Shown: positions 37,779 through 39,075 of the stretch, in pieces | How positions within the stretch are numbered: the first letter of the stretch is position 1 | How the letters are laid out: each line of letters opens with the position of its first letter | Source of the DNA: Eubacteriales bacterium | Lineage (GTDB): Bacteria > Bacillota > Clostridia > Oscillospirales > CAG-382 | Assembly (NCBI GenBank): GCA_045535415.1 | Contig: JAZSLO010000043.1 | Location: forward strand, 1 to 47,656 | Length of the DNA stretch: 47,656 nt | Direction: 5' to 3' | The notes under the pieces: generated by a model | Seen by the model: only the letters and a program-made list of their open reading frames with translations | The model's database searches: none | Told to the model about the DNA's origin: nothing | Made by a program: the position numbers and the translations under genes

Positions 37779-37799
37779 ATTACTTATAAGTAATATAAT
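37779..37799 (+). promoter_or_regulatory. 16-bp perfect palindrome overlapping the -10 of the TAC operon (probable antitoxin operator)
   Basis: ATTACTTATAAGTAAT (37779-37794) overlaps TATAAT (37794-37799), 20 nt upstream of the toxin ATG. Confidence 0.45.
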
Positions 37800-37819
37800 G
37801 TGCATAAAGAAGGTGAGCC

Positions 37820-38221
37820 ATGGATATATTAAATACAGAAAAGTTGTTTCAAGACAAATTTGGAAACGATTTTATTTTTCATCCTAAATTCTATGAAGAG
37901 TTTACTGATTTAGTCTACAAAACAGGCAAGGAACAGGAAATTATAAAACAATTAATTTCGAGAATGGCCTCTATTGTTGAGATGGGAAATGGAAATTATT
38001 ATCCTAATTGGGTGGAACATTTGAAAGGATATAGTGATTTGTATTCACTTCATATAACCGCAAAACAAACAAATTTTAGAATTTTATTTTCAATAACAAA
38101 TGATGGGAAAATATTTTTAAGAATGTTCTATGAGCGAGCCGGCAAAAAAGCAACTGCATATGATGATAATATACAAATCGCATTAAAAAGAAAAAGTGGT
38201 TTTAACTCAGGAGGTATGTGA
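37820..38221 (+). CDS. HigB/Gp49-like (RelE superfamily) toxin
   Basis: ..HLKGYSDLYSLHITAKQTNFRILFSITNDGKIFLRMFYERAGKKATAYDDNIQIALKRK matches the Gp49/HigB pattern (L.g...lyElR....yRilf....g.i.ll..f.K....). Confidence 0.7.
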   Translation: MDILNTEKLFQDKFGNDFIFHPKFYEEFTDLVYKTGKEQEIIKQLISRMASIVEMGNGNYYPNWVEHLKGYSDLYSLHITAKQTNFRILFSITNDGKIFLRMFYERAGKKATAYDDNIQIALKRKSGFNSGGM

Positions 38222-38222
38222 T

Positions 38223-38600
38223 ATGATGAACAAAAACACTGAAATGGCAAAATTTATATCACAATATATTACAAAAAGTGATATTTACACTGCTAAAATA
38301 ATTGGTAAAATATCTGCTATAATTTGTAAAAGAAGAAATGAACTTAAAATGACACAAAAAGAATTTGCAAAATATATGGAAGTTTCTCAAGGAATGATTT
38401 CAAAGTGGGAAAGTGCAGATTATAATTTTACGATAGAAAGCATTGCGAAAATTTCTGAGAAATTGGGTTTAGTATTTGAAGTGGATTTCAAGTCGGAGTG
38501 CGAATATGCTTTTAATAGTTTGCAAAATGAATATAATTCCTTAAATTATGCAAATCAATTTAAAGCGTCATTTAATGCCGAAAATTCGATGTCAGCATAA
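38223..38600 (+). CDS. XRE-HTH antitoxin with an aromatic-rich C-terminal extension
   Basis: RBS AGGAGGT. MTQKEFAKYMEVSQGMISKWES HTH. About 40-aa tail (YAFNSLQNEYNSLNYANQF) as expected for a chaperone-addiction segment. Confidence 0.7.
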   Translation: MMNKNTEMAKFISQYITKSDIYTAKIIGKISAIICKRRNELKMTQKEFAKYMEVSQGMISKWESADYNFTIESIAKISEKLGLVFEVDFKSECEYAFNSLQNEYNSLNYANQFKASFNAENSMSA

Positions 38601-38613
38601 GGAGAAATATATT

Positions 38614-39075
38614 ATGGATAAAAAATACATATCGGAATTCCAATTTATTGGCAGTTCAGTAAAGTCTTTAACTATAAAAAATAATTTTATAGCGCTGGAA
38701 CGAACAGGTGCAAATCACAAATTAGAAATTTTCCATTCAGTTGAACCGATTAGTACCATAAATGATGAAAAAACTTTTTCATCAACTATTCTTTTGAATA
38801 TAAAAGTTGGGATAGATTTAAATTCTAAAAAATATGAAGTAGATTTAACAATCGAAGGATGCTTTAATGCTCCTGTTGAAATGGGAGAAGAAACTTTTGT
38901 GGAAATGCTTAATGTTAATGGGGTAACAACATTGTATTCCATAGCAAGAGGTTTTATTCAAAGTACTACATCGCAAACCTTGGTTGCAGGAAGCATTCTA
39001 CTACCTATGTTTAATGTTGCAGCATACAGCAAAGATTTAAATGCAAAACAAACGACAGAACAAAAAACAGAATAA
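38614..39075 (+). CDS. SecB-like chaperone
   Basis: Collinear with E. coli SecB by eye: FQF.....K.L.I.N start, central beta-strand block, ..L.VNG...LYSIARGFI.S.T......S.LLPMFNV compared with ..ILFPYARE.I.S.V.....P.L.L.PVNF. Confidence 0.65.
   Translation: MDKKYISEFQFIGSSVKSLTIKNNFIALERTGANHKLEIFHSVEPISTINDEKTFSSTILLNIKVGIDLNSKKYEVDLTIEGCFNAPVEMGEETFVEMLNVNGVTTLYSIARGFIQSTTSQTLVAGSILLPMFNVAAYSKDLNAKQTTEQKTE

Follow-up and report, generated by a model that had tools for sequence, protein, structure and literature searches.

A putative HigBAC-type toxin–antitoxin–chaperone operon among the cargo genes of a Clostridia prophage

The DNA analysed here is a stretch of 47,656 nucleotides (contig JAZSLO010000043.1 of assembly GCA_045535415.1, Eubacteriales bacterium, CAG-382), in the following called the window, which carries three small co-oriented genes close to the right end of an integrated prophage. 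These genes probably form a tripartite type II toxin–antitoxin–chaperone (TAC) operon of the HigBAC type, AT-rich cargo flanked by the lysis genes on one side and by the right end of the Clostridia prophage on the other, and a dependence of the antitoxin on the chaperone is suggested by analogy to systems studied in other bacteria.

Gene linkage and predicted folds

The three open reading frames (ORFs) on the + strand are tightly spaced, with a promoter on the 5′ side and a terminator on the 3′ side (Table 1). A preliminary description of this DNA had recognised three ORFs of these kinds on the + strand, all of which are present, but had placed the antitoxin start 2 nt after the toxin stop, while the antitoxin ATG in fact lies 1 nt beyond the stop codon of the toxin gene (TGA, 38219-38221). 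The chaperone gene begins 13 nt past the antitoxin stop codon and has an AGGAG ribosome-binding site ahead of it. The TAC architecture proposed on the basis of this order of toxin (T), antitoxin (A) and SecB-like chaperone (C) is well supported by a comparison across 30 related loci (Clostridia metagenomes and viral contigs), 28 of which show the trio in synteny. The T-A-C order was found in 25/26 loci reached via the chaperone, i.e., in metagenome-assembled genomes of Clostridia, Acutalibacteraceae, Ruminococcaceae, Butyrivibrio and Faecousia as well as in three IMG/VR viral contigs, and in three of the four loci reached via toxins of only 25-31% identity, with the third gene matching the chaperone profile at 1e-31 to 1e-34. 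The linkage of the three genes persists from 68% down to about 25-35% identity.

The flanks of the cassette vary and comprise integrases, S24 repressors, Rep proteins and housekeeping genes, in some loci also restriction-modification genes or a STAND NTPase. A holin or lysin gene precedes the cassette in two distant lineages, and in the window it is preceded by an M23 peptidase gene. The cassette is a mobile unit, often riding as a prophage moron. Individual loci show further arrangements: in L028 (8757-10374), a TAC lies beside the genes for a ToxN/AbiQ-type toxin and an antitoxin with a SocA/Panacea domain, adjoining a tyrosine integrase, as a small defence or toxin–antitoxin (TA) island. 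A near-identical TAC with the same cotJB/cotJA right flank is found on a Logan contig of 15.4 kb (SRR31277394, L027), where a P22-type portal gene and a Prp peptidase gene are located directly upstream in place of the tail and lysis genes; either this prophage has undergone a deletion or rearrangement, or the arrangement is an artefact of assembly. Finally, L029 (2501-3537) harbors a T-A pair of the same family followed by an ORF for an unrelated 76-aa protein instead of a SecB-like gene, possibly representing a natural chaperone-independent variant.

The product of the third gene matches the PADLOC model PD-T4-9_C (CmdC of CmdTAC) at 7.5e-6 and PHROG 21664 at 2e-9, and its best viral matches are phage proteins annotated as SecB. 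A homologue search returned 109 relatives at 43-68% identity, none of which has a recorded Pfam assignment; where a source name is given, as for a few of them, it reads hypothetical, except for one JGI entry named SecB. All 39 aligned members of the chaperone family match the PADLOC CmdC model; weak matches to Pfam SecB were obtained for 20 of them, and none of the 39 reaches the threshold of this profile (best E 6.6e-4). An AlphaFold2 (AF2) model built from 39 relatives (predicted local distance difference test (pLDDT) 89.6; predicted TM-score (pTM) 0.82) has as its top 19 PDB matches exclusively SecB (1fx3, 1qyn, 1ozb, 5jtl) or M. tuberculosis Rv1957 with its chaperone-addiction (ChAD) peptide (5mtw), at E 2e-6, a probability of 1.00 and TM values of 0.60-0.68. 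As judged from these models, gene 3 was shown to carry a SecB fold and to fit the CmdC chaperone model. In the preliminary description, the lack of any match to SecB-family profiles had been named as one of two results that would speak against the proposal; such matches were obtained for the CmdC model and for the SecB/Rv1957 fold, the window protein itself being sub-threshold in Pfam SecB (E=0.051, 13.9 bits vs. a cut-off of 26). An identity as canonical SecB export chaperone was rejected, since the gene is never solitary but always T-A-linked and stays sub-threshold by sequence.

The second gene product matches HTH_3 in Pfam (3e-12) and, less strongly, models of HipB, MqsA and antitoxins of the HigA type; identity with PDC-M64 was also considered and rejected, since this match is confined to the generic helix-turn-helix (HTH) domain. 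In an alignment of 17 family antitoxins, the column identity amounts to 0.62 in the N-terminal segment, 0.73 in the HTH core and 0.37 in the tail, which agrees with the HTH antitoxin with C-terminal tail proposed earlier. Within the core, residues 56-63 form the stretch Q-x-M-x-SKWE, in which Q56, M58 and S60-E63 are invariant. The tails of the family are 30-43 aa long and poorly conserved, with a nearly invariant Tyr95 and further aromatic positions that recur. An aromatic-rich extension of about 40 aa had been described for the window protein, and a tail with six aromatic residues does exist; its length is 35 aa, and "aromatic-rich" is only weakly true, the family tails not being enriched. 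Of 20 antitoxins, 18 terminate with Ala, the endings being AA (9), VA (6), IA (1), LA (1) and SA (1), and the other two terminate with AS. Since the Val-Ala end of M. tuberculosis HigA1 and the Ala-Ala end of CmdA are ClpX degrons (bioRxiv 10.1101/2024.02.24.581848), the -AA and -VA ends of the family parallel those of known TAC antitoxins and appear degron-like.

For the first gene, a word-indexed homologue search returned only the toxin itself and a PADLOC search gave no match. An exhaustive HMMER search recovered 195 cluster representatives at E<=1e-3, and the genes upstream of chaperone homologues encode proteins 43-50% identical to the window toxin. Pfam Gp49 (PF05973) is matched by 28 of 51 aligned toxin relatives at E<=0.01 (best 2.9e-8), and a precomputed PF05973 match exists for some of the relatives; the window toxin misses the threshold (E=0.027, 15 bits vs. 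a gathering cut-off of 23.9). The family profile gave weak PDB matches to the HigB chains 6af3 and 7nbu/7awk (E 0.1-0.3). In the AF2 model (pLDDT 89.6), N-terminal helices and a four-stranded sheet (strands 65-104) are followed by a long C-terminal helix (111-129), the latter being a hallmark of Gp49-like toxins (PMC9098466), and Foldseek ranked Streptococcus pneumoniae HigB (6af4) and M. tuberculosis HigB1 (7awk) first, then ParE, YafQ and RelE. The predicted structure thereby shows a HigB/Gp49 toxin fold of the RelE superfamily for gene 1, consistent with the pattern first noticed in its sequence. At a mean column identity of 36%, R87, Y114 and R124 are invariant in the family, and E105, K109 and F103 nearly so. 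These strongly conserved polar residues argue for a working site, possibly with other chemistry than that of HigB1. The pocket of HigB1 is formed by E66, R68, N73, R77, F93, K95, Q98 and K99 (PMC9098466), and weak profile alignments (E 0.1-0.3) point to kept equivalents of three of them (R87=R77, F103=F93, K109=K99).

The promoter palindrome and the proposed mechanism

The spacer between the -35-like hexamer TTAAAA and the -10 hexamer TATAAT is occupied by a perfect 20-bp palindrome, which overlaps the -10 hexamer. It had previously been reported as a perfect 16-bp palindrome (ATTACTTATAAGTAAT, 37779-37794), a statement that holds for the position and the overlap, whereas the length is really 20 bp. 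According to first-order Markov simulations, perfect palindromes of at least 20 bp are expected 0.05 times per window and 0.015 times per 3 kb of local AT-rich DNA. The palindrome or a close variant was present at the same promoter position in 23/23 loci examined, the family promoter consensus reading TTGAAA-ATATTACTTATAAGTAA-TATAAT, and it is conserved even where toxins share only about 25-30% identity with the window toxin. Moreover, paired changes preserve the dyad, e.g., ATATAAC..GTTATAT in L019 or the central CC..GG in L030. Because this DNA is conserved far beyond the proteins and the recognition helix of the antitoxin is largely invariant across the family, there is good evidence that the palindrome acts as an autoregulatory operator, to which, as we infer, the antitoxin binds; the idea of an operator, already put forward in the preliminary description, is strengthened by the conservation in all loci. 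The only other long perfect palindrome of the window is an AT-only tandem and palindromic tract (TAATTATAATTATAATTATAAT, 13508-13529) in the early region of the prophage.

The -35 hexamer of the window aligns with TTGAAA or TTGCAA in 8 of 10 related loci aligned. Upstream of the promoter, a GC-rich hairpin is terminator-like and could set the module apart from upstream transcription, and on the other side of the module a terminator-like hairpin folds with -20.1 kcal/mol (z = -5.5; 0/200 shuffles fold equally well). As a promoter-like element and hairpins bracket them, the three genes look like one transcription unit. The GC content of this unit is 27-31% vs. 38-45% in the adjoining prophage genes, in agreement with the AT-rich cargo region described initially.

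Table 1. Coordinates of the candidate TAC module and of its associated signals within the window.
Feature	Position	Strand	Remarks
Upstream GC-rich hairpin	37639..37658	both	8-bp stem with 6 GC pairs, then T-run; terminator-like on either strand
-35-like hexamer TTAAAA	37771..37776	+	17-nt spacer to TATAAT; family consensus TTGAAA
Perfect 20-bp palindrome ATATTACTTATAAGTAATAT	37777..37796	.	putative operator for dimeric HTH antitoxin
-10 hexamer TATAAT	37794..37799	+	overlapped by right arm of palindrome
Ribosome-binding site of toxin gene AAGGTGAG	37810..37817	+	AAAGAAGGTGAG kept in most related loci
Toxin candidate	37820..38221	+	133 aa; predicted HigB/Gp49-like RelE/ParE-superfamily fold with N-terminal helices and long C-terminal helix
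Antitoxin candidate	38223..38600	+	125 aa; conserved N-terminal segment (residues 1-35), XRE HTH (~36-90), C-terminal tail
C-terminal tail of antitoxin SECEYAFNSLQNEYNSLNYANQFKASFNAENSMSA	38493..38597	+	35 aa; putative ChAD segment with Ser-Ala end
SecB-like chaperone candidate	38614..39075	+	153 aa
Terminator-like hairpin ACGGTCGCT...AGCGACCGT with T-run	39082..39121	.	common to convergent gene 39121-39378 (-)

A possible mechanism can be drawn from M. tuberculosis HigBA1-SecB(TA), E. coli HigBAC and CmdTAC (PMC5105189, PMC6377645, PMC9519451, PMC11618068, bioRxiv 10.1101/2024.02.24.581848). An antitoxin dimer would bind the palindrome and repress the operon, and the N-terminal part of the antitoxin would neutralise the toxin. 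A presumably disordered tail would make the antitoxin prone to aggregation or proteolysis unless a SecB-like tetramer holds this tail via aromatic anchors such as Tyr95; the terminal -x-Ala resembles the Ala-Ala or Val-Ala ClpX degrons. Titration of the chaperone, e.g., by a phage structural protein during infection, or loss of the element would let the antitoxin decay, and the freed toxin could cleave ribosome-bound mRNA and arrest the cell. Such an arrest could result in abortive infection or in the exclusion of superinfecting phages, and/or it could stabilise the prophage. A more far-reaching version appears doubtful to us, namely that of a large unannotated TAC clade in gut and rumen Clostridia, monoderm bacteria without a SecB export pathway, in which the SecB-like chaperone purely senses structural proteins of incoming phages and thereby releases a HigB-like toxin whose active site has been remodelled to His/Glu, and in which one deeply conserved operator (ATATTAC-N6-GTAATAT) allows cross-regulation between copies.

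Contrary observations and competing explanations

Several observations weigh against a TAC operon, and a first group of them relates to the tail of the antitoxin. The aromatic fraction of the family tails equals that of the rest of the protein (both 0.12), for which reason an aromatic-rich tail was rejected as a general property of the family. Moreover, the window tail contains four acidic residues and one basic residue, and acidic residues are disfavoured in classical SecB-binding motifs (PMC5105189). Finally, the window antitoxin ends with Ser-Ala and not with Ala-Ala or Val-Ala. Such an acidic and polar tail without aromatic enrichment would also fit an ordinary two-gene HigBA-type pair with a co-transcribed SecB-like accessory gene unneeded by the antitoxin, the chaperone serving another client (phage or host proteins) or acting as a sensor or adaptor only. 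This explanation, which could further draw on the related T-A locus lacking a SecB-like gene (L029) and on E. coli HigBAC, showing that protease dependence varies among TACs, is nevertheless unlikely in view of the linkage of the three genes over the whole range of identities. In addition, every chaperone-adjacent antitoxin keeps a tail that ends with a small or hydrophobic residue plus Ala or Ser, whereas the antitoxin of the lone chaperone-less locus, a single case, ends with -LEM instead of -x-Ala, and Clostridia are monoderms, in which SecB-dependent export is not known (PMC3581621, PMC4257090).

A second group of contrary points relates to the toxin. A sequence search of the PDB with the window protein gave no match, and in the weak alignments to HigB1 (E 0.1-0.3) three proposed catalytic positions are occupied by other residues, with the near-invariant E105 opposite K95, H78 opposite R68 and S76 opposite E66, so that the two toxins may differ in enzyme chemistry or even in activity. 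Taken further, the module could be decayed or repurposed, the Gp49-like protein having lost its RNase activity via the exchange of the catalytic Lys for Glu and serving now as non-toxic co-repressor or as partner of the HTH protein. In fact, a K95A mutant of HigB1 is non-toxic, and HigB2 and HigB3 of M. tuberculosis are likewise non-toxic (PMC9098466). A decayed module is nonetheless quite improbable, because E105, R87, K109, Y114 and R124 are (near-)invariant in an otherwise divergent family, which speaks for selection on a defined site, and because the alignment behind the proposed exchange is weak. Across the RelE superfamily, catalytic residues vary widely, and Glu/His acid-base pairs occur, e.g., in YoeB. 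The Lys-to-Glu change at E105 is best treated as a lead, given the weakness of the alignments behind the comparison.

The remaining contrary points are of a more general kind: the window toxin and the window chaperone each stay under the Pfam gathering score, PDB sequence searches with the chaperone and with the chaperone family profile gave no match, the -35 hexamer of the window is weaker than the family consensus, and blastn and tblastn searches of the module against deposited phage genomes gave no match. A phage regulatory or immunity cassette without any toxin, consisting of an HTH repressor and two small accessory proteins for the life cycle of the prophage itself, would suit both the weak matches to PHROGs without known function and the place of the module next to the lysis genes at the prophage end, but is very improbable, since the cassette also occurs outside prophages (near housekeeping genes, restriction-modification genes, ToxN and integrative elements), the flanking proteins show specific toxin-family and TAC-chaperone folds, and the GC content of the module differs from that of the remaining prophage.

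Host prophage and comparison with known systems

The prophage carrying the putative TAC operon extends from about 2038 to 39746 (roughly 37.7 kb) and interrupts cotJC, a spore-coat gene of the Mn-catalase family. About 30 codons from the start of this gene lie beside cotJB at the right end (39750-39840, -) and the remainder at the left end (1699-2037, -), and an identical 10-bp core (TTCGGCGGTC, minus strand) is present at both junctions (2028-2037 and 39747-39756). Joining of the halves restores the stretch ...SQFGGPDGELAA.... A large serine recombinase gene (2065-3519, -) abuts the left junction, and in splitting cotJC the prophage resembles the sporulation-gene intervening elements of Bacillus. 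The module is located about 670 bp inside the right junction, which bears out its previous placement on a Clostridia-type prophage beside the right attachment site (attR).

Further small genes surround the module. On its upstream side, a gene on the minus strand (37399-37558) diverges from the TAC promoter and features a perfect TTGACA-17-TGnTATAAT promoter (37558-37530) and a ribosome-binding site. Its ORF of 34 aa (MKKRKKKPTSFEIAELVIQAVIALSALITAIKWW, ATG at 37503) encodes a single hydrophobic helix and has a GC-rich hairpin behind it, and the product looks like a small membrane peptide of type I toxin-like or holin-like character. Between the TAC terminator and attR, two convergent genes (39121-39378 and 39423-39692, both -), one of which encodes an XRE-HTH protein of 89 aa and the other a protein of 85 aa without family match, could constitute another two-gene cargo module. 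Neither the 34-aa peptide upstream of the module nor the 85-aa ORF downstream of it gave a meaningful match in Pfam, and scans of the window for tRNAs and Rfam families found nothing. Outside the prophage, just beyond the 3′ fragment of cotJC, a second large serine recombinase gene (4-1560, +), with domains of the Resolvase, Recombinase, Zn ribbon and DUF4368 types, is possibly part of a further integrated element.

With its gene order and with predicted folds of the HigB/Gp49 and SecB-like types, the module corresponds to the TAC architecture, chaperone addiction being putative. The module represents a divergent member, hitherto without annotation, of a known class that defends E. coli against phages. 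Earlier surveys had already noted TACs beyond Proteobacteria and Actinobacteria as well as SecB-like genes carried by phages in Clostridia (PMC3581621, PMC4257090); our literature searches found no published description of the clade reported here. Work on TACs has dealt with Mycobacterium and E. coli, in which the chaperone was shown to act as phage sensor; the present family adds to this class the prophages and islands of anaerobic Clostridia from gut and rumen. It reveals no new principle. Defence-system surveys likely miss its proteins, which are annotated as hypothetical and lie under the Pfam SecB and Gp49 thresholds. For future studies, the family offers three test points, i.e., the operator as delimited here, the single near-invariant Tyr of the short tail and the degron-like C-terminus.

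Among two-gene systems, HigBA of S. pneumoniae (PDB 6af3/6af4) and gp49-gp48 of phage N15 are Gp49-type TA pairs with the toxin gene upstream of the XRE-HTH antitoxin gene, as in the window, but they have no chaperone gene. S. pneumoniae HigB is the best fold match of the window toxin, whereas its catalytic Lys (K92) aligns to Glu in the latter, again in a weak alignment. CmdTAC/PD-T4-9 of E. coli (Vassallo et al., 2022; PMC9519451; PMC11618068) is similar in its position in a prophage cargo region, in its chaperone, the CmdC model fitting every aligned member of the Clostridia family, and in the Ala-Ala end of CmdA, shared by 9/20 antitoxins here. In contrast, CmdT is an mRNA ADP-ribosyltransferase and the antitoxins are unrelated to those of the Clostridia family. 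An identity with CmdTAC was rejected, since the window toxin, with its predicted RelE/HigB fold and the negative PADLOC search, is not an ADP-ribosyltransferase and the chaperone alone resembles CmdC.

The TAC of M. tuberculosis, HigB1 (Rv1955)-HigA1 (Rv1956)-SecB(TA) (Rv1957), shares the order of toxin, antitoxin and chaperone. Its Gp49-like HigB toxin has a long C-terminal helix (7awk among the top toxin fold matches), its XRE-HTH antitoxin an extension ending with a small or hydrophobic residue plus Ala (Val-Ala in HigA1), and its chaperone a SecB fold (5mtw among the top chaperone fold matches). Sequence identity to this system is only 12-22%, and it resides on an actinobacterial chromosome instead of a prophage of monoderm Clostridia. 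Furthermore, the acidic and polar window tail has no WxxxxxYR-type repeats, and the catalytic pocket appears to differ in the E, H and S aligned to K95, R68 and E66 of HigB1 (E 0.1-0.3).

HigBAC of E. coli NT1F31 (Mets et al., 2024; bioRxiv 10.1101/2024.02.24.581848) is likewise a prophage-encoded TAC of HigB, HigA and a SecB-like chaperone, and aromatic anchor residues in its disordered ChAD may find a counterpart in the putative ChAD of the window antitoxin. Differences concern the length of this segment (96 aa with four spaced aromatics vs. tails of 30-43 aa) and the inactivation of HigA, which is ClpXP-independent, whereas the Clostridia family carries a degron-like -AA or -VA end. By analogy, the sensing of phages through competition for the chaperone, as proposed for E. 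coli HigBAC, is the most likely model for the module described here.

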